Below the pieces are notes generated by a model. That model was not told the DNA's origin, did not search any database, and saw nothing but the letters and a program-made list of their open reading frames with translations. A program made the translations under genes and the position numbers. Source: Candidatus Marinamargulisbacteria bacterium (GTDB taxonomy: Bacteria > Margulisbacteria > Marinamargulisbacteria > UBA817). From it: a DNA stretch of 64,000 nt. The stretch is from the NCBI GenBank assembly GCA_023262965.1, contig JALQXX010000003.1:3996-67995 (forward strand), read 5' to 3'. Positions 36,211 to 58,277 of the stretch are shown here, one piece after another; the first letter of the stretch is position 1, and each line of letters opens with the position of its first letter.

Positions 36211-36706
36211 CTGATCTCTCTAAAAATAATTTTGTTTTTTCGATATCAAAATTTTTGTCATCTGAAGAAATAGCCAAAAAAAAGCCCGAACACGTCGCTT
36301 TTTTTATAGACTCATTATTAAAAATGGGTTGATTCCATTGAGGCAATTTATTGATTGCGAACATTCCAAACACCGTAAAAAAAGCCGTAAATAGAATGGT
36401 CAATTCGAAGGTTACTGGTACAAATGCTGGTAATGCTACAAATGGTTTTCCTGAGAGGGCAATGGGGTAATCAAATCCATTTGTCCATACTTGTAAAGCA
36501 ATAGCTCCGGTCAATCCAATCAAACACCCTATTAACGATAAATACGGCACACGGCTCAATGGAATACCCATGGCTTTATCAATTCCATGAACAGGAAATG
36601 GTGTATAGGTGTCAAATTTAATATAGCCGGCATGATATACTTTTTTAGATAAATCCAACAAGTCTTTTGGATTATCTACTTCGCATAAATAGCCAAAAAT
36701 GCTCAT
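36179..36706 (-). CDS. actD: ACIII membrane-associated subunit ActD
   Basis: 175 aa with one TM segment, positioned between actC and actE as in canonical ACIII operons. Confidence 0.55.
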
Positions 36707-41610: not shown

Positions 41611-41611
41611 C

Positions 41612-43936
41612 TTAAAACAATACTACGCCATATTTTAAAATTAGACCAACAAAAACAACGGACACAATGGTCATCAGTTTTAATAAGATATTTAAAGATG
41701 GCCCCGCCGTGTCCTTGAATGGATCGCCAACCGTATCACCAATAACGGCAGCTTTGTGGGCATTGGTACCTTTTCCACCATGCGCACCTTTTTCAATATA
41801 TTTTTTAGCGTTATCCCAAGCCCCTCCCGAATTATTGAGCATAATGGCCAACGAAAAACCGGTTGCAACACCCCCAATTAATAGCCCCAATACACCAGCG
41901 ACACTTAATACAAACCCTGTCACAATCGGGACTAAGATGGCGAGTAGGGATGGTAAGATCATTTCTTTTTGAGCCCCAATGGTGGCAATTTCCACACATT
42001 TTGCATATTCAGGGGTTCCCTTACCGTCCAAAATACCTGGAATCTCACGAAATTGACGACGAACTTCTTCGACCATTTTCCCTGCCGCGCGACCAACCGC
42101 CAATATGGTTAATGCACAAAAAACAAATGCGGTCATGGCACCAATAAAAAGACCAATTAAAAATTTTGGATTAATGGCATTGATATGGAATATGTCAATC
42201 AATTTCAACATATCCAAATGCGGAATATAAAATATGTTTTTGGATTCGTTTACTAATTGCTCAATATTTGTGAACCCAATAGCGCCTATTCGATGAATGC
42301 CATCAAGAGCAATACGACCCAGCCATATTTTAATGGAATCAATATAGGCTGCAATAAGAGCCAATGCGGTTAATGCAGCTGATCCAATCGCAAACCCTTT
42401 CCCGGTAGCGGCGGTTGTATTGCCTAAAGAATCCAAGGCATCGGTACGTTCACGGACGGATGGATCAAGGCCAGACATTTCCGCGTTTCCACCCGCATTA
42501 TCCGCAATGGGCCCAAAAGCGTCTGTAGCCAATGTGATTCCCAAGGTAGAGAGCATTCCAATAGCGGCAAATGCAATACCATAAATACCACTAACAATCG
42601 ACTGGGATCCGCCAGAAAACAAAAAGGCGGCAATAATACCAATGGATATAATAATAACCGTAATTCCGGTAGATAACATTCCCACAGAAATACCTTGAAT
42701 AATGGTTGTTGCGCCGCCCATAACCGAGCTGTCCGCAATGGATCGTGTGGGACCATAGTGGTCAGACGTGTAATATTCGGTGACTTGGCCAATGAGGACC
42801 CCTGAAACAAGTCCCGCAGTTACGGCACCAAATACACCCCAAGAAATAAAGTCAATGTAGGCCAAAAAAGCAATAAACACCAATGTGAGTGCAGCGGATA
42901 TGTTGGTACCACGATGCAATGAACCCAACAAGCTTTTTTGATCAGCGCCCTCATTCGTTTTTACTGTGAAAATTCCGAGGATGGAAAAAATAATTCCGCC
43001 ACCGGCTACAATCATAGGGGATAAAATGGGGCGAATATCCACACCAAATTGATGGGCATTGGCTAGCATTAATGTAGCCCCAAGCGATGCGCAGGCCAAA
43101 ATAGACCCACAATACGATTCGTATAAATCGGCGCCCATACCGGCTACATCCCCAACATTGTCACCAACATTATCCGCAATGGTTGCCGGATTTCGAGGGT
43201 CATCTTCAGGAATGCCCGCTTCAACTTTTCCCACCAAATCGGCCCCCACGTCGGCGGCTTTGGTGAATATACCGCCACCAACACGGGAAAACAACGCCAT
43301 AATAGACGCTCCCATACCATAAGGTAAGAGAGATGTGGTTAACTCATTAAATTTATATGCTTGAAAGGCATCTAGGGATATCAAACTAGAGGACCAGTAG
43401 GTGGCCCCAATACTCTTCAAAAATCCATTTGAAATACCCAGTATATTGTGATCAAAAAATACATTTAAAAGAAAAAACCATACGGAGATATCCAGAAGAC
43501 CAAATCCAACAACAACCAACCCCATAATGGCACCGGCACGAAATGATACACGCAATCCGCTATTTAGGGATGTTTGACAGGCATTCGCTGTACGGGCACT
43601 GGCATTGGTAGCCGTTTTCATGCCTAAATAACCACATACCCCAGACCACAATCCACCACTCAAAAATATGAAGGGCACAAATGCATTTTGAATGCCAAGA
43701 GCGGCCATTCCCAATAGCAAAACAAAAATGACGCCAAACACATAAATTATAATTTTGTATTGGCGGTTTAGGTAGGCCATGGCGCCTTCTCTAACATATT
43801 GGGCAATCTCTTTCATACGCGGGGTCCCCTCACTTTCGCGGGATACACCAATGTAAAATAACCGGGCGGTAATTAAAGCAACCACAGCAGCGAGTGGCGC
43901 AAGATACCAAAGTAATGGGATAATGTTCATTTTCAA
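41612..43936 (-). CDS. hppA: Membrane-bound proton-translocating pyrophosphatase
   Basis: GDNVGDNVGDVAGMGADL and DNAGG motifs; 774 aa with ~16 TM segments. Confidence 0.95.
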   Translation of the reverse strand: MKMNIIPLLWYLAPLAAVVALITARLFYIGVSRESEGTPRMKEIAQYVREGAMAYLNRQYKIIIYVFGVIFVLLLGMAALGIQNAFVPFIFLSGGLWSGVCGYLGMKTATNASARTANACQTSLNSGLRVSFRAGAIMGLVVVGFGLLDISVWFFLLNVFFDHNILGISNGFLKSIGATYWSSSLISLDAFQAYKFNELTTSLLPYGMGASIMALFSRVGGGIFTKAADVGADLVGKVEAGIPEDDPRNPATIADNVGDNVGDVAGMGADLYESYCGSILACASLGATLMLANAHQFGVDIRPILSPMIVAGGGIIFSILGIFTVKTNEGADQKSLLGSLHRGTNISAALTLVFIAFLAYIDFISWGVFGAVTAGLVSGVLIGQVTEYYTSDHYGPTRSIADSSVMGGATTIIQGISVGMLSTGITVIIISIGIIAAFLFSGGSQSIVSGIYGIAFAAIGMLSTLGITLATDAFGPIADNAGGNAEMSGLDPSVRERTDALDSLGNTTAATGKGFAIGSAALTALALIAAYIDSIKIWLGRIALDGIHRIGAIGFTNIEQLVNESKNIFYIPHLDMLKLIDIFHINAINPKFLIGLFIGAMTAFVFCALTILAVGRAAGKMVEEVRRQFREIPGILDGKGTPEYAKCVEIATIGAQKEMILPSLLAILVPIVTGFVLSVAGVLGLLIGGVATGFSLAIMLNNSGGAWDNAKKYIEKGAHGGKGTNAHKAAVIGDTVGDPFKDTAGPSLNILLKLMTIVSVVFVGLILKYGVVLF

Positions 43937-44885: not shown

Positions 44886-46136
44886 TTGGGCGGTATAGCA
44901 TCAGGAAATTTATCAGGGGGCAGGTTACCAATATGGCCCAGCGGTAAAAACCCGGCCAATACGTCATCATTGAAAGGGGTTGATGAGGCGTTTTCACTGA
45001 ACCGAAATGTATCAAACGATGCGATTTCGGGCAAAAATGTTGGCAAGGCAGCCTCAGTGGATTCCCCCAATGCAGAGCCCGCGTCGGCGGTTGCGCCCAA
45101 GATTTCCACACAAATAAAACAATTAACCCCCAAAGATATTATTCAGCAACTTGCAAAAATGAATATTCCTGTCACAGATCACAACCATGACATTGCGTTA
45201 TTAATGGCAGCTTATGGGGTTGAAATTTCGGAGGATAGTTTTGACCTAGTGAATAAATTATTAAAAGGCGATAAAAGTGCTTTGGGTAAAAAAAATGCGG
45301 TGTTATTGGTGTCCAAGGGGTTGGGCAATGCGGTGGATAGTGCGGGGATTTTGAATGCATTTTTTGAATCCAATAAAGCCGTATCGGAACAGTTGAAAGG
45401 GCTTTTGAGTCGGCATTCGCAAATGGCAAGCCTCTTGCAACAATCGCTGGCGGATTTTCCGGAGTTGAGCTCGTTTTTGACTATATTTGATGATTTTAAT
45501 CAGCAATTAAAACGAATGAATACGGCGGATAAAACAAACCCGTTGCTGGTGGATCGAGATGGGTTTTTAACAGATATTCAAGCCATGTCTGGGTTTTTAA
45601 AGGGGCTTATTCAAAACAACACATTGTCATCATCCGAATGGCGTGCGTATTTGAACGGATTGGATATCATTGCCAATTATGTTGCGTCCCAAAAAATATT
45701 GAGCCAGCCGTCGGTAAAGCAACCCTTGGGCTTATTAGAATCATATGATTATTTTCAAATTCCAAACCCATTGGCGGCGTCGGTGATGATTGATATTTTG
45801 CGCCGTAAACAAACAACAAAAGATATTAAGGATGCGAAATCCAACAACCCATCCGCGCAAGAAAAAATTATTGTTAGTATGGATTCAGACGTGTTGGGGC
45901 GTGTGACGGTTATTGTAACCATTATGGGAATTAATATATGGTGTTTGGTGTATGCGGATAATGATCATACGGTATATCATTCCAATGCGTTTCGGCAGGA
46001 ATTGATAAAAAAATTGGCGGAGCACGATTATCGATTAAGTGAATTTAAAACGGTGCGAAAAAAAGTGGATATTCAAAAGTTTATTGCGCCATCTCAAAAT
46101 TTATCGGATGTTAAACGGATTCAGACGGAAATATGA
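44886..46136 (+). CDS. fliK: FliK-like flagellar hook-length control protein (divergent)
   Basis: The C-terminal region LGRVTVIVTIMGINIWCLVYADNDHTVYHSNAFRQELIKKLAEH fits the Flg_hook (FliK C-terminal) pattern. It is followed by an flhB C-terminal-domain gene, as in many FliK-YlqH pairs. Confidence 0.5.
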   Translation: MGGIASGNLSGGRLPIWPSGKNPANTSSLKGVDEAFSLNRNVSNDAISGKNVGKAASVDSPNAEPASAVAPKISTQIKQLTPKDIIQQLAKMNIPVTDHNHDIALLMAAYGVEISEDSFDLVNKLLKGDKSALGKKNAVLLVSKGLGNAVDSAGILNAFFESNKAVSEQLKGLLSRHSQMASLLQQSLADFPELSSFLTIFDDFNQQLKRMNTADKTNPLLVDRDGFLTDIQAMSGFLKGLIQNNTLSSSEWRAYLNGLDIIANYVASQKILSQPSVKQPLGLLESYDYFQIPNPLAASVMIDILRRKQTTKDIKDAKSNNPSAQEKIIVSMDSDVLGRVTVIVTIMGINIWCLVYADNDHTVYHSNAFRQELIKKLAEHDYRLSEFKTVRKKVDIQKFIAPSQNLSDVKRIQTEI

Positions 46137-46528
46137 GTCTTAGTCGCAAAAAAAAGATTTTAGAAAAGCGTGCATCTCTAGAAAAAAAAATTAAGCGGCG
46201 CATACACGATTTGTCTCATGATGATCAAAGCAGTTTGCAAGCTGTTGCGATTAAATACGATAAATCATCATCAAAAGCCCCCACCATTGTGGCAAGTGGC
46301 CGTGGTAAAATCGCCACTCAAATTCTAGAATTGGCCGAAGAAAATAATGTGCCAATGGTGGAAGATCCGGCCTTGTCAAAATTGCTTTCATCTCTTAAAA
46401 TTAAAAGCGAGGTGCCACCGAACCTATTTAAAGTAATCGCTGAAATTTTGGCGTTTATTTTTTATCTGGATCGAATGGCAAAGGCAAAAAAAGGTATTCG
46501 CTCAACCTTTAAGCGGTTAAAAAAATGA
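46133..46528 (+). CDS. FlhB C-terminal-domain protein (YlqH/EscU-like)
   Basis: EENNVPMVEDPALSKLLSSLKIKSEVPPNLFKVIAEILAFIF matches the FlhB/YscU cytoplasmic-domain consensus (VP.VE...LAR.L...IP.ELY.AVAEIL). Confidence 0.75.
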   Translation: MSLSRKKKILEKRASLEKKIKRRIHDLSHDDQSSLQAVAIKYDKSSSKAPTIVASGRGKIATQILELAEENNVPMVEDPALSKLLSSLKIKSEVPPNLFKVIAEILAFIFYLDRMAKAKKGIRSTFKRLKK

Positions 46529-47325
46529 TGAAGCATGTATTTTTATGGATGATGGTAATAGCGCAATGGGGGCTTGGAGCAGAGCAGAATCCAATGTCTT
46601 TTGAGGAATATGATGATATTGTGAATCCTGTAATGAAATTAAATGCAACATCGATGGGTGGGTTTATGGATGCCATGAAATCCTACATTGTGTATACCGC
46701 CATACAGCATTTGCCAGGAGCTAAGGAATCGGGGGTGGGGTATTACTATGACAATCAGACACGGGGTATGAAACGGGTTCTATTTTATCGGTTATCGGAA
46801 GGGTACCCGCGTGAAACCAATAAGCCCCTTGATTTTTACATCGAAGGCAAAGGTTTTTTTGTTATTGAGTTGCCCGGCGGGTGGCCAGCCTACACACAAG
46901 ATGGCCGGTTTGAACGGGATGAGATGGGGCGGTTGGTGACCTTTGAAGAGCATTTTCCTGTCTTGGGTGAAAATGGGCCTATTTACGTGGCGAATGGTGG
47001 CATTAATGTGTCAAAAGATGGTGTTATTTATCAGAATGATCAGGTTGTGGATGTGTTTCGGGTTGAATGGCCACGGCGGAAGCATGATTTAAAGTCGTTC
47101 AACCATAAAATATTTTATTTTTCAAAAGAAGACTGGGAAAACCCCGATAAAATTATGCCGGCAGACGTCAAAATCTTGCAGGGGTATGTTGCTGATTCGT
47201 CGATTACCAAAGGGTATATTGGATTGGTGCCTGAGTGGAAAAATGGGCACGAAGCCAATGTTAAAGTGGTGAAGGCGTATTTGAAGAATATGTCGTTGGC
47301 GGTTCAGGCGGCAAATCCGCAATAA
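46525..47325 (+). CDS. Atypical FlgF-like rod-family protein with signal-peptide-like N-terminus
   Basis: The core DGRFERDEMGRLVTFEEHFPVLGENGPIYVANGGINVSKDGVIY resembles the FlgF/FlgG central region. The canonical N-terminal ANNLAN motif is absent. The N-terminus MMKHVFLWMMVIAQWGLGA is hydrophobic. Confidence 0.4.
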   Translation: MMKHVFLWMMVIAQWGLGAEQNPMSFEEYDDIVNPVMKLNATSMGGFMDAMKSYIVYTAIQHLPGAKESGVGYYYDNQTRGMKRVLFYRLSEGYPRETNKPLDFYIEGKGFFVIELPGGWPAYTQDGRFERDEMGRLVTFEEHFPVLGENGPIYVANGGINVSKDGVIYQNDQVVDVFRVEWPRRKHDLKSFNHKIFYFSKEDWENPDKIMPADVKILQGYVADSSITKGYIGLVPEWKNGHEANVKVVKAYLKNMSLAVQAANPQ

Positions 47326-47343
47326 AAATACTAAGGAGGAAAC

Positions 47344-48150
47344 ATGTTTCAACAATTTAATATTTCACGATCAGGGTTTGGTACGTATCAGAAAATGATG
47401 TTTAACATTACCAATAATATTGCCAACGCTCAGACCCCTGGGTATAAACAAACTCGGGTGGAATTGGCGACCTTATTTCCCATTATTCTTCAAGAAGCGG
47501 AGATGGATTATGCGGAAGACGACAATATGAATCCGTACATTAAAAAGAAGCGTGGCATTGAATTGGGAACAGGGGTTCGTATTGAATCCATTTCTACCGA
47601 TTTTTCCGAAGGGAATTTACAGGTAACGAATAATGAGTTGGACTGGGCTATTCGTGGGAATGGATTCTTTCAGTTGCGGCGTCCGGATGGTGATATCGTA
47701 TATTCTCGTTCGGGAAATTTTACGCGTGATGTATACGGTAATATTGTCACTCAGTCCGGGTATTCGCTGGATCCGCCCATTCGGTTGCCCGATAACACAA
47801 CCCAGTTAACGGTTGATGCGGAAGGTCGTGTTTTTGCGTCCGTTAATAACGATGCCGTCCCCCGAGAAATTGGGCAATTATTATTGTCACGATTTTCAAA
47901 TCCAGGGGGATTAAAAAATATTGGTAATAATTTTTATAAAGAAACAACGGCTTCTGGGGAGCCCATTGTGGAAATTCCTGGTCGAAATGCAACGGGGCAA
48001 GTTGTGCAGTTTTCCATTGAGAATTCCAATGTGGATATTATTAAAGAAATGATGGAAATGATTATGACGCAAAAAGGGTTGGAGTTGCTGGGTAAGGCAA
48101 TGCAAGCTGGTGAGCAAATGCTGAAAGCGGGTATGGGGATGACCTCATAA
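47344..48150 (+). CDS. flgG: Flagellar basal-body rod protein FlgG
   Basis: N-terminal NITNNIANAQTPGYK and C-terminal SNVDIIKEMMEMIMTQKGLE...AGEQML rod signatures; 268 aa. Confidence 0.85.
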   Translation: MFQQFNISRSGFGTYQKMMFNITNNIANAQTPGYKQTRVELATLFPIILQEAEMDYAEDDNMNPYIKKKRGIELGTGVRIESISTDFSEGNLQVTNNELDWAIRGNGFFQLRRPDGDIVYSRSGNFTRDVYGNIVTQSGYSLDPPIRLPDNTTQLTVDAEGRVFASVNNDAVPREIGQLLLSRFSNPGGLKNIGNNFYKETTASGEPIVEIPGRNATGQVVQFSIENSNVDIIKEMMEMIMTQKGLELLGKAMQAGEQMLKAGMGMTS

Positions 48151-48188
48151 TTGCGTGGTTTTTCTGCGCTTGGATACTGCTTGCTCCG

Positions 48189-48836
48189 ATGGTTTTGGCG
48201 GAAACCATGCCCTGTGATGGGATTGATGATGTCATGACAGAGGCCTTGGCCAATCACATTCGGGAAAATTATCCGAAGGTTGAGATCGCGGGATTAACCG
48301 TGAATCGCCGTGATTCCAGCGCCTTACCTGCGTGTACGCAGGTGTCTGTGACCATGCCAATGCGCGTCCGGTTTGCCGTGGATACGGTTGTGAAGTTGGA
48401 TGCCTACAACGGGGATCATTTTGTTGGACGGTCAACCCGGTTGTATTATTTTTCTGGATCCGCAAAAGGGATTGCCCTGACGCATGCCATGTCGCGTGGC
48501 GATGTTATTGATGAATCGGATATGGATGCGGTGTTGATTCCATTGGATCAGGTGAATACGGCAACCATTAGTCATATTGATCCGGGTATGTTTCAGTTAC
48601 GAAGCAATGGGTTGAAGGGGCGTGTTTTGGATGACTGGTCAATTGAACCCCGATTTGATGTTGCAAAAGGGCAGTCGGTGCGTGTTATTGTCCATAAACA
48701 GCCGGTGACCTTGACGGTAAAGGGGTCTGTTTTAGACAATGGTCGTATTGGCCGTACCATTCGGGTGGCATTAAATGATAAAATACTGGTAGGAACACTG
48801 CATGATAAAAATACTGTTTACATTGATCATTTATAG
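48189..48836 (+). CDS. flgA: Flagellar P-ring assembly chaperone FlgA
   Basis: C-terminal SAF-domain pattern KGQSVRVIVHKQPVTLTVKGSVLDNGRIGRTIRV. The start is uncertain, because an in-frame upstream extension would supply a signal peptide. Confidence 0.7.
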   Translation: MVLAETMPCDGIDDVMTEALANHIRENYPKVEIAGLTVNRRDSSALPACTQVSVTMPMRVRFAVDTVVKLDAYNGDHFVGRSTRLYYFSGSAKGIALTHAMSRGDVIDESDMDAVLIPLDQVNTATISHIDPGMFQLRSNGLKGRVLDDWSIEPRFDVAKGQSVRVIVHKQPVTLTVKGSVLDNGRIGRTIRVALNDKILVGTLHDKNTVYIDHL

Positions 48837-49410
48837 TTTTGTATTTCATGGAATGATGGCGGATTCCTTATGGACAAAATCTCAAACGCGTTCTGTTTTT
48901 GATAATCAGCGGTCATTTTCTGTGGGGGATTTGGTGACGGTTCGAATATCGGCGGAGTCTACAGCGGTTCAAGAGGCTGGAACAACGACGCGAAAATCCT
49001 CAAATATTAATGCCAATTTCTTTGATACCTTTGATCAATATTCATTAAATGCCAACGCGAATGATTCGCTTAGAAAGATGCAAAATTATCGTCTGGGTGG
49101 AAATGACAGTTATTCAGGCGTGGGGCAAACCACACGAAAAAGTAAAGTAGAGGCCATTGTTTCGTGTACCGTTACCCGTGTGCTACCAAATGGTCATTTG
49201 GTTATTAATGGTGAGCGATTGGTGGATGTCAACAATGATTCAGAAATTATACAGATTTCAGGGATTGTTCGGCCGAATGATATTTCAGCCGCCAATTCGG
49301 TCGAATCGCATCAAATTGCACAGTTTGCGATCTCTTTGCGTGGCAAAGGGGTGGTTCATTCGAAACAAACACCTGGATTTTTGTCGAATTTTTTTAATTG
49401 GGTTTTTTGA
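48802..49410 (+). CDS. flgH: Flagellar L-ring protein FlgH
   Basis: Signal peptide plus LVTVRISAESTAVQEAG...NGHLVINGERLVDVNNDSEIIQISGIVRPNDI. Confidence 0.85.
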   Translation: MIKILFTLIIYSFVFHGMMADSLWTKSQTRSVFDNQRSFSVGDLVTVRISAESTAVQEAGTTTRKSSNINANFFDTFDQYSLNANANDSLRKMQNYRLGGNDSYSGVGQTTRKSKVEAIVSCTVTRVLPNGHLVINGERLVDVNNDSEIIQISGIVRPNDISAANSVESHQIAQFAISLRGKGVVHSKQTPGFLSNFFNWVF

Positions 49411-50486
49411 TGAAGCGAATTATTTTAGGATTAATTATGGGGATAAGTCTAGTGGGGTATGGTGCGACTACCGTAAAAATTCGCGATATTTCCCGGGTGG
49501 TGGAATCCAGAGACAATCAATTGTTTGGGTATGGGCTGGTGGTTGGGTTACGCAATACAGGGGATACTCAGCGATCGGTTTTTACCGAAAAAGCCCTCAC
49601 GAATTTACTGAAGAAAATGGGGATTAGTCCGGATCAACGAGACTTTAAATCGCGTAATGTGGCGTCGGTTATGGTAACGATGAATTTGCCACCGTATGCC
49701 CGGCCTGGTCAAAAGATTGATGTGAACGTATCGTCTTTAGGGGATGCAACAAGTTTGGCGGGGGGGACCTTGCTAATGACGCCATTGCAGGGGCCCGATT
49801 TTGAAACATATGCGGTGGCTCAAGGCCAAGTTATTGTAGGGGGGATATCAGAGAAATCCAGTAAAGTGAGCTACTATATGAATCAAACAACGTCCGGTCG
49901 TGTACCCAATGGGGCTATTGTTGAAAAAGAGGTGGCGGTGACGCGTGATGATCAATTAAATATTATACTGGTATTAAATGATCCCAATTTCACCATGTCG
50001 TCTAAAGTTGTTAAAGCACTTAAGGCCAATGGATTTAAGCAGGTTATGGCGTTGGATGCCGCATCGATTCAAATTCCACTAAACAACATACCCGATATGG
50101 CATATGTGGATATTATTCATAAAATTGAATCCATTGAAGTAGCACCTGAGTCCAGCTCTAGAGTGGTTATTAATGCGAAATCGGGGGTCGTTGTTATTGG
50201 GGAAAATGTGCGGTTGCTTCCGGTTGCGATTACGCATGGGGGCGTCTCGATTAAAATTACGGATAGTTCTAGCACTACGGATTATGGCGGTAGTTCCGGA
50301 ATAGGGGGGCAGGATATTGAGGTATCTGAAGATAAAACAACGGTTCATTTTGTAAATCCGGATAATTCATTATCCAGCTTGGTGGATGCATTGAATAAAA
50401 TAGGGGTCAAAACGAAGGATCTTATTTCTATTTTACAAGCCATGGAAGAGGCGGGTGCATTGGTGGCCACCATTGATGTTATTTAA
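49398..50486 (+). CDS. flgI: Flagellar P-ring protein FlgI
   Basis: Signal peptide, then RIRDISRV...NQLFGYGLVVGLRNTGD. Confidence 0.9.
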   Translation: MGFLMKRIILGLIMGISLVGYGATTVKIRDISRVVESRDNQLFGYGLVVGLRNTGDTQRSVFTEKALTNLLKKMGISPDQRDFKSRNVASVMVTMNLPPYARPGQKIDVNVSSLGDATSLAGGTLLMTPLQGPDFETYAVAQGQVIVGGISEKSSKVSYYMNQTTSGRVPNGAIVEKEVAVTRDDQLNIILVLNDPNFTMSSKVVKALKANGFKQVMALDAASIQIPLNNIPDMAYVDIIHKIESIEVAPESSSRVVINAKSGVVVIGENVRLLPVAITHGGVSIKITDSSSTTDYGGSSGIGGQDIEVSEDKTTVHFVNPDNSLSSLVDALNKIGVKTKDLISILQAMEEAGALVATIDVI

Positions 50487-50554
50487 TTGTTTTTGGAATT
50501 TACGAGCAGCTCGTTAAAAGGGAGCGTGCTAAAATAGGCAATTTGTGATATTAT

Positions 50555-50887
50555 TTGATAGGCATGACGTGGGTTATTATATTTGGTATTTTGTTGGGCA
50601 ATATGGTTTTTTCCCAAGTGGAAATGAACTATGATATGTTGAATTATATTGCCACCCAAGAGAAAAGTCCGGATAAAGACGATCGCGAAGGGATTAAGCG
50701 TCAATTTCAAACCTATTTTATTAAGACCGTTTTTTTGAATAATGTTTTTAAATCCGACCAGTTGTTTTACGGCGAAACAGACACGAATTATGAAATTATA
50801 AATCAGCTTATGATTAATCAATTTGCTAATAATTTGGCCGACACAAATTTTTTGGACTTGTCGCTGGTGAATTTAGATGACAGATAA
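50555..50887 (+). CDS. Rod-binding (FlgJ N-terminal-like) protein with hydrophobic N-terminus
   Basis: The segment QFQTYFIKTVFLNNVFKSD resembles the FlgJ rod-binding motif (FEAMFLQMMLKSMR). 110 aa. Confidence 0.45.
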   Translation: MIGMTWVIIFGILLGNMVFSQVEMNYDMLNYIATQEKSPDKDDREGIKRQFQTYFIKTVFLNNVFKSDQLFYGETDTNYEIINQLMINQFANNLADTNFLDLSLVNLDDR

Positions 50888-51647
50888 TAACGCAGTTCCT
50901 GAAGGGCAGTCGGTTGATATGCCCAATTATCTTTCGCGAGAACTCTATGTGTCTTCTAAAAATAATTATCATGTTACAGATGAGGAAAAACGTATAGCTG
51001 ATGAACACTTGTATGTTATTGAAGCCATTTCCGCTGTTTTATTTTCAAAAAAAAAGATGCCCCCAACTGTGGATTATAATGATCTGATTAGTGTGGGGTT
51101 TTCGGGTCTTTTAAAAGCAATTCGCGGGTATGACAAATCCAAAAATGTGTTGTTTAAAACGTATGCCAGTATTCGGATTCGAGGTGAAATGCTGGATTTT
51201 ATCCGAAAAGAATGGAAGTCCAAAGCCGCTCACCAGCATCAAACAATGATGAACGGGTTAAAAGAGCGTGTTGCGCATGTGTTTCAAATGCAATTTGATG
51301 GGTCTGAGGCACCGTCTTCCTACAATGTTTTATCTCAACTAACCACATCATACGTCTTGTCTTTGGATGCTGTTATGGACAGTGGCGGCAGTGATCAGGT
51401 GATTGATGGTGCCAATTCTTTTGAAAATACCGTAAACACCGCTGATGAATATCGGTGTTTGAACAATGTTGTGAAGGCATTGGGTCCCAATGAACAGCAA
51501 TTTTTGGATATGTTTTATTGGCAGGGCCTGTCGCAGAAAGAGATTTCAGATCAGTTGCAAATATCCCCAGCAACCGTGAGTCGGATGCATCGTCGGATTA
51601 TTGACCTACTGAAAGAAAAAATGAGCGCGGAGAGTACGAATAAATAA
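50877..51647 (+). CDS. fliA: Flagellar sigma factor (sigma-28, FliA/WhiG family)
   Basis: Sigma-70 region 2 plus the region 4 HTH LSQKEISDQLQISPATVSRMHRRII. It sits within the flagellar cluster. Confidence 0.8.
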   Translation: MTDNNAVPEGQSVDMPNYLSRELYVSSKNNYHVTDEEKRIADEHLYVIEAISAVLFSKKKMPPTVDYNDLISVGFSGLLKAIRGYDKSKNVLFKTYASIRIRGEMLDFIRKEWKSKAAHQHQTMMNGLKERVAHVFQMQFDGSEAPSSYNVLSQLTTSYVLSLDAVMDSGGSDQVIDGANSFENTVNTADEYRCLNNVVKALGPNEQQFLDMFYWQGLSQKEISDQLQISPATVSRMHRRIIDLLKEKMSAESTNK

Positions 51648-51672
51648 TGTCGGGTATGAATAGGAGATTAAT

Positions 51673-52143
51673 GTGAGATATCTAATCATTATGGTTATGG
51701 CCTCTTTTTTGTGTGTCGCTCAGGATGCAAATGCGCCGGCTACTCGTGGCAATACGGCTACCTATGGCAATGCCGCCACCTACGGTGATGCCGCCACCTA
51801 CGGTGATGCCACCACCTACGGTGATGCCACATCATCACTTCTTTACGATCAGACCGCCCTTAATCTTGAAGCCGCAATCTATGATATGAATCGGCGTCAT
51901 AATGCCGTTGCTTATAATATCGCAAATGCCTCTACCCCAGGCTTTCGACCCATTCGCTATGATGATGAAATCGCAGAAGCTATTCGACTCTATGGTACCA
52001 CTGAAATGCTCAATGATGTGAATGTGGATGATGAGATGGTTAAGTCTACTAAAATTCGTTTGAAACATAGTGCCTATATTCGGCTACTGACCACCAAAAT
52101 AGGGATTACCAAAAAGGTGGTGACGTTAGGCAAGGGTGCCTAA
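51673..52143 (+). CDS. flgB: Flagellar basal-body rod protein FlgB with ~50-aa N-terminal extension (hydrophobic segment plus 6-aa tandem repeats)
   Basis: The core LLYDQTALNLEAAIYDMNRRHNAVAYNIANASTPGF matches FlgB. The GTG start 51673 is supported by RBS TAGGAG with a 6-nt spacer. No alternative in-frame start lies downstream of the repeats. Confidence 0.75.
   Translation: MRYLIIMVMASFLCVAQDANAPATRGNTATYGNAATYGDAATYGDATTYGDATSSLLYDQTALNLEAAIYDMNRRHNAVAYNIANASTPGFRPIRYDDEIAEAIRLYGTTEMLNDVNVDDEMVKSTKIRLKHSAYIRLLTTKIGITKKVVTLGKGA
51744..51815 (+). repeat. 4 x 18-nt in-frame tandem repeat (gccgccacctacggtgat-like) encoding (A/T)ATYG(N/D) inside flgB
   Basis: Seen directly in the sequence. The four units differ by 1-3 nt. 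Confidence 0.7.
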
Positions 52144-52267
52144 CCTAGCGGGTGGGATTTTTCGAATATCTGCGTTAAGTGTGGTCCTCCGATCCTCATT
52201 TACTAAAGTAAACTCCGGTTCTCACACCACACTGTGCCTTGATCTTCAAAAAATCCCACCCGCTAGG
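52144..52267. repeat. 124-bp nested palindrome immediately after the flgB stop
   Basis: A perfect 19-bp inverted repeat: CCTAGCGGGTGGGATTTTT (52144-52162) and AAAAATCCCACCCGCTAGG (52249-52267). An inner 7-bp inverted repeat: AGTGTGG (52178-52184) and CCACACT (52227-52233). A central TTTAC-taaa-GTAAA hairpin at ~52200-52214. Confidence 0.7.
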
Positions 52268-52285
52268 GACTTGCACTCGTATACC

Positions 52286-52500
52286 TCCTCGTTTACTAAC
52301 GTAAACTCGGAGCCCCTTCTACAGTCGCTTTCCTCGTTTACTAGCGTAAACTTGGCGTCCTTCCTACAGTCGCTTTCCTCGTTTACTAGCGTAAACTTGG
52401 CGTCCTTTCTACAGTCGCTTTCCTCGTTTACTAACGTAAACTTGGAGTCCTTTCTACAGTCGCTTTCCTCGTTTACTAGCGTAAACTTGGCGTCCTTTTT
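52286..52500. repeat. Tandem array of 4.7 x 45-bp direct repeats, each containing the GTTTAC-TARC-GTAAAC hairpin
   Basis: Units begin at 52286, 52331, 52376, 52421 and 52466 (partial). The consensus is TCCTCGTTTACTARCGTAAACTTGGMGTCCTTYCTACAGTCGCTTT, with 1-4 mismatches per unit. There are no spacers between units. Confidence 0.8.
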
Positions 52501-52766
52501 GCACCCATTTGCCGCGTTTAATCCCCCAAACGTTGCTTTATTTTTCTGCTTCGGACTGATTGCGTTTTTTTTGGTGGATTTGAGTTTTATTCAAAATGAA
52601 CCTTTTCAAACCTTGGTTTATTTTGTACAATCAAATGGTATGATGAGCGGATTTCTTCAATGGTTTCAAACTGTTGTCACATCGTGTAGCCCTGTTGCAA
52701 AAAAAATTAAAACCTATTTATTGGATTGCTTTAGCCCACCCCTATCCCACTTTGGATCCCTAGCCT

Positions 52767-53213
52767 ATGATTTTTAAAATTAGTGTTTTGCTTCTTGCTC
52801 TTTTTGTATACGCTTTCCCCCAAAAAAGTGGCGCTATCGATGCCCTTAATCTATCCGGTAATGGTATGCTCGTTCAAAAATACCGCCTTCGTATTATTGC
52901 CGAAAATATCGCCAATGTCTCCACTCATATGACCGATCGCGGTGAACCCTATCGTAAAAAATACGTTATGGTTGTCCCCGATAAACACGGCGTTCGCGCC
53001 GCTGGTATCATGGAATCCAATGCCCCCTTCGGCCAAATATTGGACCCAGGTCATGTCTTCGCCGATCAACATGGGATTCTCCGTACACCAAATTTTGAAC
53101 TTAATGACGAAATGGTTAATCTCTCTTACTCAAACCTACTCTATGAAGCCAATACCACCGCATTTAAATCGTCACGACAAATGTTTCAAAATACCCTCGA
53201 GCTCCTTAAATGA
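52767..53213 (+). CDS. flgC: Flagellar basal-body rod protein FlgC with hydrophobic N-terminal extension
   Basis: IDALNLSGNGMLVQKYRLRIIAENIANVST matches the FlgC N-terminal motif. The C-terminus LYEANTTAFKSSRQMFQNTLELLK is typical. It is preceded by (M)IFKISVLLLALFVYAFPQKSGA. The only in-frame alternative start (TTG 52788) still leaves the hydrophobic segment. Confidence 0.8.
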   Translation: MIFKISVLLLALFVYAFPQKSGAIDALNLSGNGMLVQKYRLRIIAENIANVSTHMTDRGEPYRKKYVMVVPDKHGVRAAGIMESNAPFGQILDPGHVFADQHGILRTPNFELNDEMVNLSYSNLLYEANTTAFKSSRQMFQNTLELLK

Positions 53214-53713
53214 TCCAGAACCTACCCATACACTCCCCTGTAAATGCCCTCCAAAAAATAAACCCCGCTCACGCCCTTAATCCCGAACTCGTCAATGAAT
53301 TTAATGCCGTCTTTAAAGAAGCCGCTGCCGCTATTGTCCATACATCTGAAAATAATGATAAAAAACAGGGCAAAATACCCCACGATACCATCTCCCTCCA
53401 TAATGTCGATCGCCATTACCTCGCCCAACAAGTGAATGCCGGTGTCGTTAATGCCGCCACACAGGCCGATCCCAAATCGCTGAATATTGTCCCCCTTCAA
53501 ATATTCCTCGATAATGCTATTCGATCCCTCGAACGCGTCAGCCAACAAGAAATTCGTGCCAATACGCTCATGAATGAATTTATTAAAGGCAATGTCTCCG
53601 AGGATGAAGTCGTACTCGAAACAGCCAAATTGAATCTCGCCATCTCCATGGTCACCACCATTGTCCAATCAACCGTTCAAACGTTTAAAGAAATACAACA
53701 GATCCCAGTTTAG
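53210..53713 (+). CDS. fliE: Flagellar hook-basal body protein FliE (long form)
   Basis: The C-terminal region EDEVVLETAKLNLAISMVTTIVQSTVQTFKEIQQIPV matches the FliE consensus. 167 aa is longer than typical. Confidence 0.7.
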   Translation: MIQNLPIHSPVNALQKINPAHALNPELVNEFNAVFKEAAAAIVHTSENNDKKQGKIPHDTISLHNVDRHYLAQQVNAGVVNAATQADPKSLNIVPLQIFLDNAIRSLERVSQQEIRANTLMNEFIKGNVSEDEVVLETAKLNLAISMVTTIVQSTVQTFKEIQQIPV

Positions 53714-53728
53714 GTGTAATATAAAAAA

Positions 53729-55459
53729 ATGGCAGAAGATAATCCCATAGATACCGATTTCGATGACTTAAACCTGGATGATACCATAGCCGATGATCTC
53801 ATGGACCCAATCAATGGGCTGGATGATCTGGACCCTCAGGTAAATCCCTCCCCCAACCAACCCTCCCGCCTTCAACGCACCCTTACCGCCATTCGTACCA
53901 ATCGACGCTATCACGTGATGGCTATTATTCTGATCGGTGTTGCCGTTCTTGCATACGGCGCCTATGGCCTATTTAAAAAAACGCCACCCACACCCCCCAC
54001 CACCAATCAATCCGCTCCCCCAACCTTCGATAGCGCCGCTATTGTCAGTAAAAAAGAGCCCCAAAAGAAAAAACGAAAAATTAAATATGTTGACTTGTAT
54101 CGGCAGCTCGAAAACCGTCAAATAAGCCCTATTTTGCGTGAATTAAGCTACAGAAATATCGCCTACAATATTGTTCAAAATGGAAAGCAATTCGACCTTC
54201 AAGTCGATGAAGATGACCTTGATGAAGCCAAACGAATGCTCGCTATTAAGGGCATGCCTTCCGGCACAACAAAAGGCTATGAAATTTTCGATGAAGCGTC
54301 TAACTTGGGTGTTACCGAATTCGATAAACGGATTCGTCTTATACGCGCCCTGTCCGGTGAAATGGAAAAATCCATTATGGAATTTGATGTGGTTGATTAT
54401 GCCTATGTTGAAATCGTTATACCCGAAACCAAATTGTTCGCCGTCACTCAACCCCCGGTGACCGCTTCCATTCTTATTAAGCGCCGCAACGGGGCCGATA
54501 TCAACGACGAAACCGTCTATGCCATTGTTCAGCTTGTGTCCAATTCGGTCGAAAACCTCCTTCCCGAAAATATTTCTGTTGTGGATACAGAAGGCCGCGT
54601 TCTCTCCATTGGGGTTCTCGATCGTATGCGCCAAAAACAACTCGCCAATGAAAAAAAAGGGCTCGTTACAACCAATACTGCTGGAAACGGACAAGTTATT
54701 ATTCCCGCAATTGAAGACGTTGTGGATTGGTTTCAATTGAAGTTTAATTATGAAACGGTTCTAGAAAAAAAAGCCATTAATCAATTGAATGGGGTATTGC
54801 CAGAGGGGTCCTATAAAGTAGCGGTTACGATTGATTTGAACGCTGTCTCACGTACCGGTGTTCCGGATATTAAAAAAATTGTTACCAGTGTTGTGGTTGA
54901 TGAGCAATTCGATGATGTCGAATTGACAGACGCAATGGCGGAACAAATTACCGATGCGGTTGCGGGCGCCGTTGGCTTTGTTGCTGATCGCGACACCATC
55001 CATATTTCAAAAGCCGCTTTTTTGCAGAAACGCGTGGAGGAGTCCCCAACGGGCGTGGATGCCGTTACTCAAATTAATATTCCCCAATCACATTATAGCG
55101 ATACAATCCAGCGACTATTGGAATTTTGGCCCATTTTTGCCATCGGTGCCGTTATAACAACCATGTTTATTATTGTCGGAAAAATACTAATGCAAATTGG
55201 CCGATATACCGCTCGAATGTATGCTCGTGTACGCGATAAATGGTCGAAGCCCCGCCTGACAAACGCTCCCAGTGAGGAAGGCGGGCCTGATGATGCGAAT
55301 GCCACAGATGCTGGGTCAAATCGTGTGAGCGTGGATGTTATTAATGAATTAAAGGCGAAGGCCAATTTTTCACGCGTTATTCAGTTGAAGGCGATTGCCG
55401 CCCAAGAATTGGAGATATCGGTGAGTGCATTAAAAGAAATGGTGCGAAATAATGGATAA
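53729..55459 (+). CDS. fliF: Flagellar MS-ring protein FliF
   Basis: 576 aa with an N-terminal TM segment, then SGTTKGYEIFDEASNLGVTEFDKRIRLIRALSGEMEKSI (FliF ring-building motif region) and a C-terminal TM segment. Confidence 0.85.
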   Translation: MAEDNPIDTDFDDLNLDDTIADDLMDPINGLDDLDPQVNPSPNQPSRLQRTLTAIRTNRRYHVMAIILIGVAVLAYGAYGLFKKTPPTPPTTNQSAPPTFDSAAIVSKKEPQKKKRKIKYVDLYRQLENRQISPILRELSYRNIAYNIVQNGKQFDLQVDEDDLDEAKRMLAIKGMPSGTTKGYEIFDEASNLGVTEFDKRIRLIRALSGEMEKSIMEFDVVDYAYVEIVIPETKLFAVTQPPVTASILIKRRNGADINDETVYAIVQLVSNSVENLLPENISVVDTEGRVLSIGVLDRMRQKQLANEKKGLVTTNTAGNGQVIIPAIEDVVDWFQLKFNYETVLEKKAINQLNGVLPEGSYKVAVTIDLNAVSRTGVPDIKKIVTSVVVDEQFDDVELTDAMAEQITDAVAGAVGFVADRDTIHISKAAFLQKRVEESPTGVDAVTQINIPQSHYSDTIQRLLEFWPIFAIGAVITTMFIIVGKILMQIGRYTARMYARVRDKWSKPRLTNAPSEEGGPDDANATDAGSNRVSVDVINELKAKANFSRVIQLKAIAAQELEISVSALKEMVRNNG

Positions 55460-55952
55460 TTTGATCCGAGCTAAAATTATTATTGAGCTGTTAGATGATC
55501 GAAAATATACGGTTTTGTCATCGTTTACCGATGTTGAGTTGGAACAGTTAAATGCGATTGATGTAAGCCGTTTGGCCGATCTCTCATCGGTGGATATTGA
55601 TGCGGTTGTGAATGATTTTTTGATGACGGTTAATACCAAGGTGAATCAAAAAAATGCAGAGAATGAGGCCATCACGCACGATACCGATTCGGTAGAGGAG
55701 GTGCCCGATACATTATTTTCTGAACCAGATCCCGTTTTGGGTATTTCCCCCGAGGCTATCGAAGCACTCAGGAATCAACCCATTCAACTACTGGCCTGTG
55801 TGTTGCAGCAATTGCCCAATGATAGGCGCCAGTATGTTGAGGCACAGTTGGGAGACGAAACCCATCGTGCTCTATCGACGGTGGATGTTGTTGAAACGCC
55901 GATGTCGTCACGCGTTGCTCGTATTTTAATGGATCAATTGAACTTGGTATAA
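55452..55952 (+). CDS. fliG: FliG-like protein comprising only N-terminal and partial middle domains
   Basis: RAKIIIELLDDRKYTVLSSFTDVELEQLNAIDVSRLADLSSVDIDAVVNDFL aligns with the FliG N-terminal domain (KAAVLLVALGPEKAAQVMKHLDEETVEQL...VLEEFL). PIQLLACVLQQLPNDRRQYVEAQL aligns with the middle ARM region. The stop comes after 166 aa, whereas full FliG is ~330 aa. Confidence 0.5.
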   Translation: MDNLIRAKIIIELLDDRKYTVLSSFTDVELEQLNAIDVSRLADLSSVDIDAVVNDFLMTVNTKVNQKNAENEAITHDTDSVEEVPDTLFSEPDPVLGISPEAIEALRNQPIQLLACVLQQLPNDRRQYVEAQLGDETHRALSTVDVVETPMSSRVARILMDQLNLV

Positions 55953-55993: not shown

Positions 55994-57115
55994 ATGGCAA
56001 CTGAGCAAAAAAATAGTGTTCCATTATTGGATTTACAGGCACAATACGAGCCCATTAAAGATGTGGTATTGGCCGCAATAACCGATGTGTTTGAATCCAA
56101 ACAATTTATTCAAGGACCAAAAGTTCTGGAGTTGGAACGTATGATGGTCGACTATTGTCAGGTGAATCATGCTATTGGCGTATCATCTGGAACGGATGCC
56201 CTAGTGTTGGCGTTGATGGGATTGGGTATCGGATCGGGGGATGAGGTTATTACAACCCCCTTTACGTTTTTTGCAACGGCCGGGGCTATTCATCGCGTGG
56301 GTGCAACACCTGTATTTGTGGATATTGATCCCAATACGTACATTATCGATGTCACCAAAATTGAAGATGCGATATCGCCACATACCAAAGCGATCATGCC
56401 CGTGCATTTATTTGGTCAAATGGCCGATATGACCACCATTATGGCGATTGCTAAAGCGCATCAGCTATATGTTATTGAGGATGCCGCTCAGGCCATTGGT
56501 GCTACGCAACACTATGAGGGCGTCGCCCGTCCGGCAGGTAGTATAGGGGATGTTGGATGCTTTTCATTTTTTCCGAGTAAAAATTTGGGGTGTTGTGGAG
56601 ACGGTGGTTTGGTAACGGCTCAGGATGCGGTATTAGCGGACAAAATACGATTGCTACGCACCCATGGGGCTCAGCAAAAATATTATCATGATTATGTTGG
56701 CGGGAATTTTCGATTGGATCCGATTCAAGCCGCTGTGTTAGCTGTTAAACTGCCGTATTTGAATGATCAACACGAAGGACGTCGTCGCAACGCTCAGGTG
56801 TATAACGCCCGCATTCAAACAGCTCAATGTCCCATAGAAAAACACGGGAATTATATGATCTATAATCAGTACACCATTCGAACCGATCGTCGGGATGACC
56901 TAATCGCTCATTTAATCCAACGCGATATCGGTCACGCCATCTATTACCCACTATCCCTGCATTTGCAAAAATGCTTTGCCCATTTGGGGTATCAACCCGG
57001 TGATTTTCCGGAATCAGAACGGGCGTCCCACGCCGTATTGTCATTGCCCATTTACGCTGAATTAACCCCACATCAGCTGGATGCCGTTGTGGATGCGGTG
57101 AATAGCTTCGTGTAA
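55994..57115 (+). CDS. DegT/DnrJ/EryC1/StrS-family PLP-dependent sugar aminotransferase
   Basis: PLLDLQAQYEPIKDVVLAAITDVFESKQFIQGPKV and the fold-type I aminotransferase core; 373 aa. Confidence 0.85.
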   Translation: MATEQKNSVPLLDLQAQYEPIKDVVLAAITDVFESKQFIQGPKVLELERMMVDYCQVNHAIGVSSGTDALVLALMGLGIGSGDEVITTPFTFFATAGAIHRVGATPVFVDIDPNTYIIDVTKIEDAISPHTKAIMPVHLFGQMADMTTIMAIAKAHQLYVIEDAAQAIGATQHYEGVARPAGSIGDVGCFSFFPSKNLGCCGDGGLVTAQDAVLADKIRLLRTHGAQQKYYHDYVGGNFRLDPIQAAVLAVKLPYLNDQHEGRRRNAQVYNARIQTAQCPIEKHGNYMIYNQYTIRTDRRDDLIAHLIQRDIGHAIYYPLSLHLQKCFAHLGYQPGDFPESERASHAVLSLPIYAELTPHQLDAVVDAVNSFV

Positions 57116-57151
57116 CGTTAGCGCAACAGCCACGGCTAACGATACCGGATC

Positions 57152-57173
57152 GAGCGTTGTATGATCAACGCTC
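57152..57173. terminator. Hairpin between convergent degT-like and galE-like genes (candidate bidirectional terminator)
   Basis: GAGCGTTG-tatgat-CAACGCTC, an 8-bp perfect stem. There is no strong U-tract. Confidence 0.35.
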
Positions 57174-57205
57174 CCATATCATACGGCTATTCCCCTTTGA
57201 GGGCG

Positions 57206-58189: not shown

Positions 58190-58277
58190 AGTGTATGTAT
58201 AATACCAAATGAGTCGGGTTTGTGTATTGTTAGGCCACTATAACTTTTGTAGAATGCCAACAATATGATGTATTGTA

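Follow-up and report, generated by a model that had tools for sequence, protein, structure and literature searches.

Background

All axial proteins of the bacterial flagellum are thought to pass through the type III channel and to add at the growing tip under a cap, and this type III-only rule underlies models of rod assembly and of the evolution of the flagellum and the injectisome. The Marinamargulisbacteria belong to an uncultured sister group of the Cyanobacteria that abounds in the ocean, and whether and how the group swims bears on reconstructions of ancestral motility near the Cyanobacteria. Here we describe a cluster of 14 flagellar genes, all in the same orientation, which spans positions 44886-55952 of a 64,000-nucleotide stretch of contig JALQXX010000003.1 from Candidatus Marinamargulisbacteria bacterium. 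This whole 64-kb stretch is called the window below.

Flagellar genes of ocean Margulisbacteria were already recorded by Carnevali et al. 2019 (PMC6349859). That study concerns the same organisms and the same genes, but it scored the presence or absence of KEGG orthologues (KO) and concluded that the organisms are 'motile by polar flagella'; the operon, the short FliG and the leaders treated here are not described there. Their table lists genomes by code only, and the codes AA1A, AG2A and AG3B are read here as three ocean genomes. A second published source is the RAST-annotated table of 'Ruthmannia eludens', a 1.51-Mb high-quality metagenome-assembled genome (MAG) of the Marinamargulisbacteria (Gruber-Vodicka et al. 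2019). As far as we can tell, the 14-gene operon, a FliG family without FliG_C, and the Sec-type leaders borne by three rod proteins and a small secreted protein, orf110, are as yet undescribed. In our reading the cluster is the structural-core operon of a highly divergent flagellar-type machine and one of several flagellar loci, with the export gate encoded elsewhere; we put the probability of this reading at about 0.75.

Conservation of the operon

The genes run in the order FliK-like, FlhB-C (a stand-alone FlhB C-terminal domain), FlgF-like, FlgG, FlgA, FlgH, FlgI, orf110, FliA-type sigma factor, FlgB, FlgC, FliE, FliF and FliG-like. The limits of the cluster are exact, 44886 being the start of the FliK-like open reading frame (ORF) and 55952 the stop of the FliG-like ORF. 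Neighbouring ORFs overlap or are separated by at most 68 nt, with the insert between flgB and flgC as the single exception. A preliminary description, made from the sequence alone, had given this gene content and these coordinates, and both hold, the gene content by Pfam and NCBIfam profiles and by orthologues.

A search with FliF recovered four related Marinamargulisbacteria / Margulisiibacteriota MAGs (L006-L009). In all four, gene content and gene order are unchanged and the run ends at a short FliG-like ORF, with genes for a membrane H+-pyrophosphatase (H+-PPase) and UbiA upstream where the contig extends that far and polysaccharide export genes downstream. The same order and endpoints are also found on a 1.94-Mb contig. 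Across genera, identity to the window is 83-84% for FlgG, 82-86% for FlgC, 73-76% for FlgH, 69-79% for FlgI and 57-60% for FliF; for the adjacent H+-PPase it is 80-82%. FlgG, FlgC, FlgH and FlgI match this neighbour in conservation, which argues for purifying selection; the genes are strongly constrained and not in decay.

Distant short FliGs led to much more divergent genomes, in three of which (L010, L014 and L015) the whole cluster is present; the L013 and L016 contigs have partial runs, as far as these contigs reach. Identity to the window in these loci is 38-43% for FlgC, 46-47% for FlgG and 41-44% for FliF. Their neighbours differ, with an aminotransferase gene upstream and, on the downstream side, genes for Lnt, a TPR protein, holB, an SLH protein and TonB-ExbBD. 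The cluster genes move and persist together, and the operon is intact and strongly conserved; what it encodes is the core of a very divergent flagellum, namely its rings and rod.

The short FliG

The last gene of the cluster (55452-55952) has a start codon that overlaps the fliF stop, and encodes a protein of 166 amino acids (aa) which consists of FliG_N, a disordered acidic linker and a FliG_M-type ARM domain. The identical ORF, followed by the same aminotransferase gene, is present on five contigs from five different samples, and the stop codon is therefore real. A check of that stop (55950-55952) in relatives, proposed in the preliminary description, found the short end kept, with orthologues of 164-175 aa in the four related MAGs. 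A word-indexed search returned only homologues of 147-175 aa, and an exhaustive profile search of 1.84 billion representatives returned 41 short-FliG proteins, almost all of 160-270 aa. Two longer forms (270 and 363 aa) owe their extra length to acidic low-complexity tails. Distant members match Pfam FliG_N and FliG_M, no significant match to FliG_C was obtained in any scanned member of the family, and the same profile search recovered no protein consisting of FliG_C only. Nor is there a full-length FliG among the 41 proteins.

These results refute the reading that puts the stop down to faulty sequencing or assembly, or to a nonsense mutation of recent date, and takes the cluster to be degenerating. 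The many scores below curated cut-offs and the 623-bp repeat insert between flgB and flgC might be cited for it, but with one and the same ORF in five samples, orthologues of nearly equal length in four MAGs, a 41-member family, and all genes intact and highly conserved, its probability is negligible.

The assignment to FliG was settled only by an alignment of 23 sequences. Scanned directly, the 166-aa ORF had no significant match in Pfam or NCBIfam (E 0.09 for FliG_N), and a shallow profile of six sequences gave an hhalign probability of 0.3% against FliG. Searched against PDB sequences, the six-sequence profile returned an eIF5 match only, which was rejected as due to chance. The first AlphaFold2 (AF2) model had a predicted local distance difference test score (pLDDT) of 65 and Foldseek E values above 1. 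Relatives match FliG_N with E values down to 2e-9, and FliG_M (PF14841) is matched at 1e-5 by the L009 orthologue and at 1e-8 by P0115 and P0127; the alignment of P0115 spans positions 10-181 of a FliG model that is 338 positions long. With the 23-member profile, hhalign gave a colinear alignment to residues 7-158 of the 331 of Escherichia coli FliG (probability 92%, E 7e-7). The AF2 model built from the 23 sequences has a pLDDT of 85.5 and consists of two helical domains and the disordered acidic linker. Its top Foldseek ranks are full-length FliG chains of C-ring cryo-EM structures, at E values of 0.04-0.17 with none below 0.001. The N-domain superposes on FliG of the Thermotoga maritima FliFc:FliGn complex (5tdy_D) with a target-normalised TM-score of 0.70 and a root mean square deviation of 2.2 Å, and the C-domain on FliG middle domains with target-normalised TM-scores of 0.59-0.66 (0.66 for 4qrm_B). 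The EHPQ motif of FliG_M is kept in part, as QPIQ.

The structural check that the preliminary description had called for thus found FliG_N and FliG_M, and profiles, AF2 and Foldseek agree with its view that the protein comprises the N-terminal and a partial middle domain and lacks the torque domain. In E. coli numbering, the end of the short FliG corresponds to residue ~158-180. It is an intact, conserved FliG variant of N + M architecture and not a truncation artefact, and it provides a natural test of how labour is split among the N, M and C domains of FliG.

By itself the short FliG is unable to make contact with the stator. Any torque would have to come from another protein that bears FliG_C, and the candidate is the motAB-linked FliG of R. 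eludens, as either a full paralogue or a split half. In the latter case the 166-aa N + ARM_M protein would be joined by ARM_M-ARM_C stacking to a separate, motAB-linked FliG_C protein. Consistent with this, the short form ends where helix_MC would start, the RAST FliG of R. eludens adjoins MotA and MotB, away from fliF, and the FliG orthologue K02410 is flagged 'check_length' in AA1A and AG3B (PMC6349859). However, the second FliG, which is known by annotation, is possibly full length, the 'check_length' match might be the short FliG itself, and the profile search brought up no partner of the FliG_C-only kind. A split FliG is in our view unlikely.

Two members of the short-FliG family (P0119 and P0122) come from unexpected sources. 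One is from a EukProt Picozoa single-cell assembly (COSAG01) and probably belongs to a bacterium present as an associate or contaminant. NCBI labels the other 'Thermoproteota archaeon'; its contig, which carries P and L ring genes together with Lnt, SLH and TonB-ExbBD, is bacterial and therefore probably misbinned or mislabelled.

Sec-type leaders on rod proteins

Atypical N-termini on the rod proteins had been pointed out in the preliminary description, and they have the appearance of Sec-type leaders. They are found on the proximal rod proteins FlgB (51673-52143, 156 aa) and FlgC (52767-53213, 148 aa), on the FlgF-like rod protein (46525-47325, 266 aa), whose terminal rod motifs are degenerate, and on orf110 (50555-50887, 110 aa), a small conserved protein at the flgJ position. 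Each begins with one or two basic residues, followed by 10-15 hydrophobic residues and a small-residue motif. The canonical mature start comes directly after the leader, as in FlgC, where the leader covers approximately residues 1-23 (...KSGA/IDALNLSGNGM...); in the window FlgB a repeat run lies between the two.

The leaders are seen in the window, in L006-L009 and in the divergent loci. FlgB and FlgC have one in all nine loci compared and the FlgF-like protein wherever its gene is present; orf110 is conserved with a signal peptide in L006-L009, L010 and L013. Among full-length members of the FlgC family, 61 of 63 have a signal-peptide-like N-terminus, whereas ordinary FlgCs from the same search begin straight at the rod motif. 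The mean pairwise identity of FlgC is 23% in the leader compared with 79% in the mature part, and a fast-evolving leader ahead of a conserved mature part is the usual mark of a working signal peptide.

Leaders were scored with a heuristic based on hydropathy and the n-h-c pattern of SPase I signal peptides, which have small residues at -3 and -1. FlgH, FlgI and FlgA, as known Sec substrates, served as internal positive controls; the negative controls were FlgG, FliE and the FliK-like protein. The maximum 9-residue hydropathy is ~1.9-3.8 for FlgH, FlgI and FlgA, 2.1-3.8 for FlgB, FlgC, the FlgF-like protein and orf110, and ~2.0 or lower for FlgG, FliE, the FliK-like protein, FlhB-C, FliG and the sigma factor. 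FlgG, FliE and the FliK-like protein have polar N-termini and no Sec leader. By this scoring, FlgB, FlgC and the FlgF-like protein depart from the canonical pattern, in which rod subunits carry no Sec signal, and FlgG and FliE keep to it. The possibility that FlgC is processed as a lipoprotein was rejected, since the cysteine often present in the leader is not part of a proper lipobox and the window FlgC has no cysteine.

The pattern suggests, as far as N-terminal sequences can indicate, a rod whose subunits are divided between Sec and type III secretion for their export. We infer that FlgB, FlgC, the FlgF-like protein and orf110 would reach the periplasm via Sec and join the rod from outside, and that FliE and FlgG would use the type III channel. 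Literature searches, whose coverage was incomplete, found no report of Sec-dependent or leader-bearing rod proteins. Conserved Sec leaders on proximal rod proteins would either break the type III-only rule or reveal a new use of rod-family proteins. In the first case this would be the first flagellar-type machine in which the axial proteins are not all type III substrates; if the leaders are non-functional, the locus is no more than an ordinary, if divergent, flagellar operon, with genes that the 2019 table had already listed.

The N-terminus of FlgA bears on its own annotation. The listed flgA ORF starts at ATG 48189, but its frame is open upstream, where it encodes a hydrophobic leader reading IIAWFFCAWILLAPMVLAETMPC. 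FlgA orthologues all have a signal peptide, and a start at the first ATG would delete the leader of the window FlgA. The start is probably non-canonical, at ATT 48150 or else at ATA 48147, with ATT 48150 the more likely, and would overlap the flgG stop (48147-48189).

The rest of the flagellar system

No gene for flagellin, hook, motAB, fliMN, fliHIJ, flhA or fliPQR was present among the Pfam-scanned ORFs of the window (19.7-60.2 kb minus 29.3-30.3 kb), in line with the list of missing genes in the preliminary description. No further flagellar gene was found in the scanned parts of the window, to which precomputed Pfam labels on identical contigs added ~0.8-12.9 kb and 60.3 kb to the window end; the ORFs at 13.2-19.5 kb lay outside the scan.

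The two published tables supply genes that the window does not. In AA1A, FlhA, FlhB, FliO, FliP, FliQ, FliR, FliN and FlgE are scored 'reliable', as are FliF, FlgC, FlgF, FlgH, FlgI, FlgA and K04061 (Carnevali et al. 2019, Supplementary Data 2, PMC6349859). FliH, FliI, FliJ, FliM, FlgD, FlgK, FlgL, FliD, FlgM, FlgN, FlhF, FlhG and FliL are N/A in all three ocean genomes. In the same table FliE, FlgB and FliK are also N/A in AA1A although homologues exist in this cluster; the pipeline therefore misses divergent members, and absences from it are weak evidence. In R. eludens the two halves of the present cluster are at peg.304-309 and peg.514-520, with FliM, FliN, FliP, FliQ, FliR, FlhB and FlhA at peg.1251-1260, FliG-MotA-MotB at peg.420-422, FliI at peg.232 and FlgE at peg.763 (Gruber-Vodicka et al. 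2019). Flagellin, FlgK, FlgL, FliD, FliS, FlgD, FliH and FliL do not appear in that table.

The columns HO1A-RX8C of the 2019 table, which are given as codes only and are taken here as Saganbacteria, have the same reduced pattern as the ocean Margulisbacteria, with the gate, rod, P and L rings, hook and K04061 present and FliG, FliM, FlgK, FlgL, FliD and FliK undetected (PMC6349859). The divergent operon copies L010, L013, L014 and L016 might come from Saganbacteria or a neighbouring group.

It could be supposed that the 14 genes by themselves build an envelope-spanning ring-and-rod apparatus, repurposed from a basal body, with no type III gate, motor or filament and with Sec delivering the rod. 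The cluster is sharply bounded and conserved in different genomic contexts, four proteins that are normally exported by type III secretion have Sec-type leaders, and FliG is without its stator-contacting domain. Yet FlgG, FliE and the FliK-like protein have no Sec leader, the canonical N-terminus of FlgG is invariant, and gate genes are annotated in both AA1A and R. eludens. Since FliE, FlgG and the FliK-like protein keep N-termini of the type III secretion kind, the cluster needs an export gate. Further, P and L rings need an exported FlgG rod, and a FliK-like ruler together with FlhB-C makes sense only with a type III gate. On these grounds we read the cluster as one of several loci and consider a self-sufficient apparatus very improbable. 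The preliminary description had raised the prospect of a degenerate or repurposed apparatus, which is countered by conservation across genera and by the gate and motor genes of AA1A and R. eludens. Its other suggestion, that the cluster is one of several dispersed loci, is favoured by the tables for these two organisms, but the idea of a machine without a filament survives there.

Such a machine would have a gate, basal body and hook, like that of Buchnera, and would serve in secretion or in the envelope and not in swimming. FlgK, FlgL, FliD, FlgD, FlgM and FlgN, which are N/A in AA1A, AG2A and AG3B, are present in the sediment Margulisbacteria of the same table (PMC6349859), the R. eludens table shows none of the filament and filament-associated entries flagellin, FlgK, FlgL, FliD and FliS, and the basal bodies of Buchnera (PMC8109811) offer a precedent. 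On the other hand, KO and RAST models miss divergent proteins of this lineage, as happened with FliE, FlgB and FliK in AA1A, the FliC and FliS rows are N/A in all 46 genomes of the table and so carry no information (PMC6349859), and MotA and MotB are annotated in R. eludens. The absence of a filament is a possibility to be taken seriously, although we lean against it.

Several points weigh against our reading of the cluster as the core of a divergent machine with its gate elsewhere and a rod supplied by two routes. We know of no precedent for a rod built partly of periplasmic subunits, and the leaders were judged heuristically, so that their cleavage is presumed from sequence. Gate and motor genes are extrapolated to the genome of the window from two other members of the class. 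AA1A has no detectable FliI, FliH, FliJ or FliM (PMC6349859), FlgK, FlgL, FliD and FlgD are annotated in neither AA1A nor R. eludens, and R. eludens has no annotated flagellin. Proteins of this lineage often escape standard models, FliE, FlgB and FliK having been scored absent in AA1A, and the second FliG, an annotation, may be full length or partial.

Proposed assembly

In the most complete form of our proposal the rod has two routes of export, Sec for FlgB, FlgC, the FlgF-like protein and the protein at the cap position, and type III secretion for FliE and FlgG; the FliG without a torque domain is possibly half of a split FliG; and the machine may be filament-less. This combination is put forward tentatively and, taken as a whole, we regard it as somewhat unlikely. 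Assembly would begin with the entry of FliF into the membrane and its binding of the short FliG, through docking of FliG_N on the C-terminal tail of FliF, with ARM_M contacting neighbouring rotor parts (step 1). A gate encoded elsewhere (FliOPQR, FlhA and FlhB) would be placed inside the MS ring (step 2), and FliE would be exported through the gate and cap it (step 3). Sec would bring FlgB, FlgC and the FlgF-like protein to the periplasm, where they would be added to FliE within the open collar of the MS ring, possibly with the secreted orf110 protein as a helper (step 4). FlgG would then pass through the channel to give the distal rod (step 5), and FlgI and FlgH, assisted by FlgA, would form the P and L rings (step 6). 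Finally, the FliK-like protein and FlhB-C would set the export switch, and FlgE from another locus would form the hook (step 7). Steps 1, 2, 5, 6 and 7 are modelled on established flagellar biology; steps 3 and 4, in the form given, are what we infer for this locus.

Assignment of the cluster genes

Most of the cluster proteins, all encoded on the + strand, score below curated family cut-offs, and the evidence is often carried by orthologues. The first gene (44886-46136) encodes a FliK-like hook-length control protein of 416 aa, whose N-terminus is polar as in type III secretion substrates. The window protein gave no significant Pfam match and was assigned via orthologues, which match PF02120 Flg_hook with E 7e-6 in L007 and 5e-4 in L008; homologues in L010 and L014 carry precomputed Flg_hook labels. 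The second gene (46133-46528) encodes the stand-alone FlhB C-terminal domain protein, which is of the FlhX/YlqH type and 131 aa long. It matches positions 262-335 of the 335 of PF01312 (E 7e-21), and scores 84.1 bits (E 6e-24) against TIGR00789 flhB_rel, under the cut-off of 117.35, with a single C-terminal subdomain architecture that fits that family. It has neither a membrane domain nor the NPTH autocleavage motif, and a search seeded with it gave 48 homologues, all of ~130 aa or shorter, with no full-length FlhB among them.

The rod set of FliE, FlgB, FlgC, FlgF and FlgG is recognised in full, most of it under equivalog cut-offs. The FlgF-like protein matches the D1 domain PF22692 (E 1e-10) and, in part, TIGR02490 (E 2e-19). 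FlgG, the distal rod protein (47344-48150, 268 aa), has a canonical N-terminus without a signal peptide; it scores 245.6 bits against TIGR02488 (E 6e-73; cut-off 252.75), and its residues 1-26 are invariant across five genomes. FlgB matches TIGR01396 with E 8e-9 and FlgC matches TIGR01395 with E 2e-27. FliE (53210-53713, 167 aa), which has a long polar N-terminal extension and no signal peptide, matches PF02049 (E 7e-6) and TIGR00205 (E 2e-4).

Of the ring proteins, FlgA, the P-ring chaperone (48150-48836 with the ATT start), matches PF13144 (E 4e-14) and TIGR03170 (E 6e-17). The L-ring protein FlgH (48802-49410, 202 aa; PF02107, E 4e-48) has a signal peptide without a lipobox cysteine, and the P-ring protein FlgI (49398-50486, 362 aa), also with a signal peptide, matches PF02119 (E 2e-106) and reaches 362 bits against NF003676, over the cut-off of 300. 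The MS-ring protein FliF (53729-55459, 576 aa) matches PF01514 (E 9e-48) and scores 133.2 bits against TIGR00206, over the cut-off of 129.75. In the Marinamargulisbacteria group FliF has an acidic cytoplasmic extension of ~60 aa ahead of the first membrane helix (53729-53910 in the window); in the divergent loci the helix begins near residue 37.

The sigma factor (50877-51647, 256 aa) belongs to the FliA/WhiG family, with Sigma70 regions 2 and 4 present and a match to TIGR02479 (E 3e-33) under the family cut-off. A sigma-28-type promoter pattern had eight matches where 2.6 were expected, none of them upstream of the + strand cluster genes, and generic promoter and terminator scans showed no enrichment.

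The gene for orf110 had been called a rod-binding protein in the preliminary description, a label that the profiles do not uphold. The protein has no Pfam or NCBIfam match, and three orthologues gave nothing at E up to 10. Identity with the FlgJ N-terminal rod-binding domain (PF10135) is not supported, with an hhalign probability of 0.6% against a FlgJ N-terminal sequence. What speaks for a rod-binding role is the position of the gene after flgI.

Repeats and the flgB-flgC insert

Between flgB and flgC lies a non-coding insert of 623 bp (52144-52766), recognised by its repeats and by comparison with relatives. Its repeats are a perfect inverted repeat of 18 bp (52144-52161 and 52250-52267) and a 45-bp unit in 4.7 tandem copies (52286-52498), each copy with the palindrome GTTTAC-TARC-GTAAAC. 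The same-species contigs L001 and L002, which both begin within the insert, have it too; L006-L009 do not. A search of the whole window against Rfam gave no match, so that the insert does not correspond to any known RNA, and the window has no second copy. A 213-aa ORF (52136-52777) was rejected as a gene; it sits on this lineage-specific, repeat-bearing insert, which accounts both for the spurious ORF and for a local reversal of GC skew. Within flgB, 18-nt tandem repeats (51747-51830) encode the low-complexity (A/T)TYG(D/N)A run between the leader and the canonical start; the run is not found in the FlgB orthologues of L006-L009.

Surroundings of the cluster

Both flanks consist of housekeeping genes, with an Mrp antiporter, alternative complex III and caa3 oxidase, H+-pyrophosphatase and UbiA upstream, and sugar-nucleotide and glycosyltransferase genes, XerC/D, photolyase and shikimate genes downstream. 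The antiporter operon (21776-29275) is of the Mrp Na+/H+ type, with MnhE, G, B and C and three Proton_antipo_M subunits, and its AT skew is strongly negative. The minus strand of 30335-43936 encodes alternative complex III (an ActA-like multihaem cytochrome, Fe-S subunit, NrfD-like subunit, ActD and cytochrome c), SCO1, a caa3-type oxidase (COX2-COX1-COX3) and the membrane H+-pyrophosphatase. GC content is 0.37-0.41 over ~30-42 kb, compared with 0.44-0.51 in the first 28 kb and 0.41-0.50 beyond 42 kb.

After the short fliG, genes for DegT, an epimerase, a sugar transferase and UDP-glucose dehydrogenase occupy 55994-60234. In relatives, Wza-like and Wzz-like polysaccharide export genes lie directly 3' of the short fliG (L007 12316-20280; L009 12171-17580; L021 19138-20393). 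L007 also has a PseB-like dehydratase, DegT aminotransferase, CMP-sugar cytidylyltransferase and formyltransferase, a set that resembles a nonulosonic-acid pathway. Genes of these kinds often go with flagellin glycosylation, but are equally used for capsule or lipopolysaccharide synthesis.

Comparison with known systems

The filament-less basal bodies of Buchnera aphidicola (PMC8109811) resemble the system described here in combining a basal body and type III export with no annotated flagellin, and a role other than motility is conceivable. Buchnera differs in being a reduced endosymbiont with otherwise canonical proteins, whereas the present organisms are mostly free-living plankton with MotAB annotated in one member, and in them the lack of a filament is only a possibility.

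The FlhB-C protein appears to share with its stand-alone homologues (TIGR00789 flhB_rel, KEGG K04061) a soluble form of ~100-130 aa that matches the FlhB_CC subdomain only. FlhX of Helicobacter pylori and YlqH of Bacillus subtilis are examples of such homologues. Its occurrence beside a full-length FlhB is indicated by two FlhB entries in R. eludens and by K02401 together with K04061 in AA1A. It differs from those homologues in a basic N-terminal extension of ~35 aa and in its fixed place beside fliK, where the operon begins.

Second FliG paralogues, such as FliG1 and FliG2 of Borrelia burgdorferi, offer a parallel in that a genome has two or more FliG-family genes, one of them fliF-linked. 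These known paralogues are full length; the short-FliG family, in contrast, is consistently without FliG_C.

Compared to the canonical hook-basal-body of Salmonella and E. coli (flgA-flgJ, fliE-fliK), the cluster has the same FliF, FliE, FlgB, FlgC, FlgF, FlgG, FlgA, FlgH, FlgI, FliK and FliA families, and it retains the ancestral run flgB-flgC-fliE-fliF-fliG of the Bacillus-type order. As in canonical flagella, the N-termini of FlgG, FliE and FliK are of the type that goes with type III secretion. The differences are that FliG stops here after the middle domain, that fliH, fliI and fliJ do not follow fliG, and that FlgB, FlgC, the FlgF-like protein and the protein at the FlgJ position have what appear to be Sec-type leaders.

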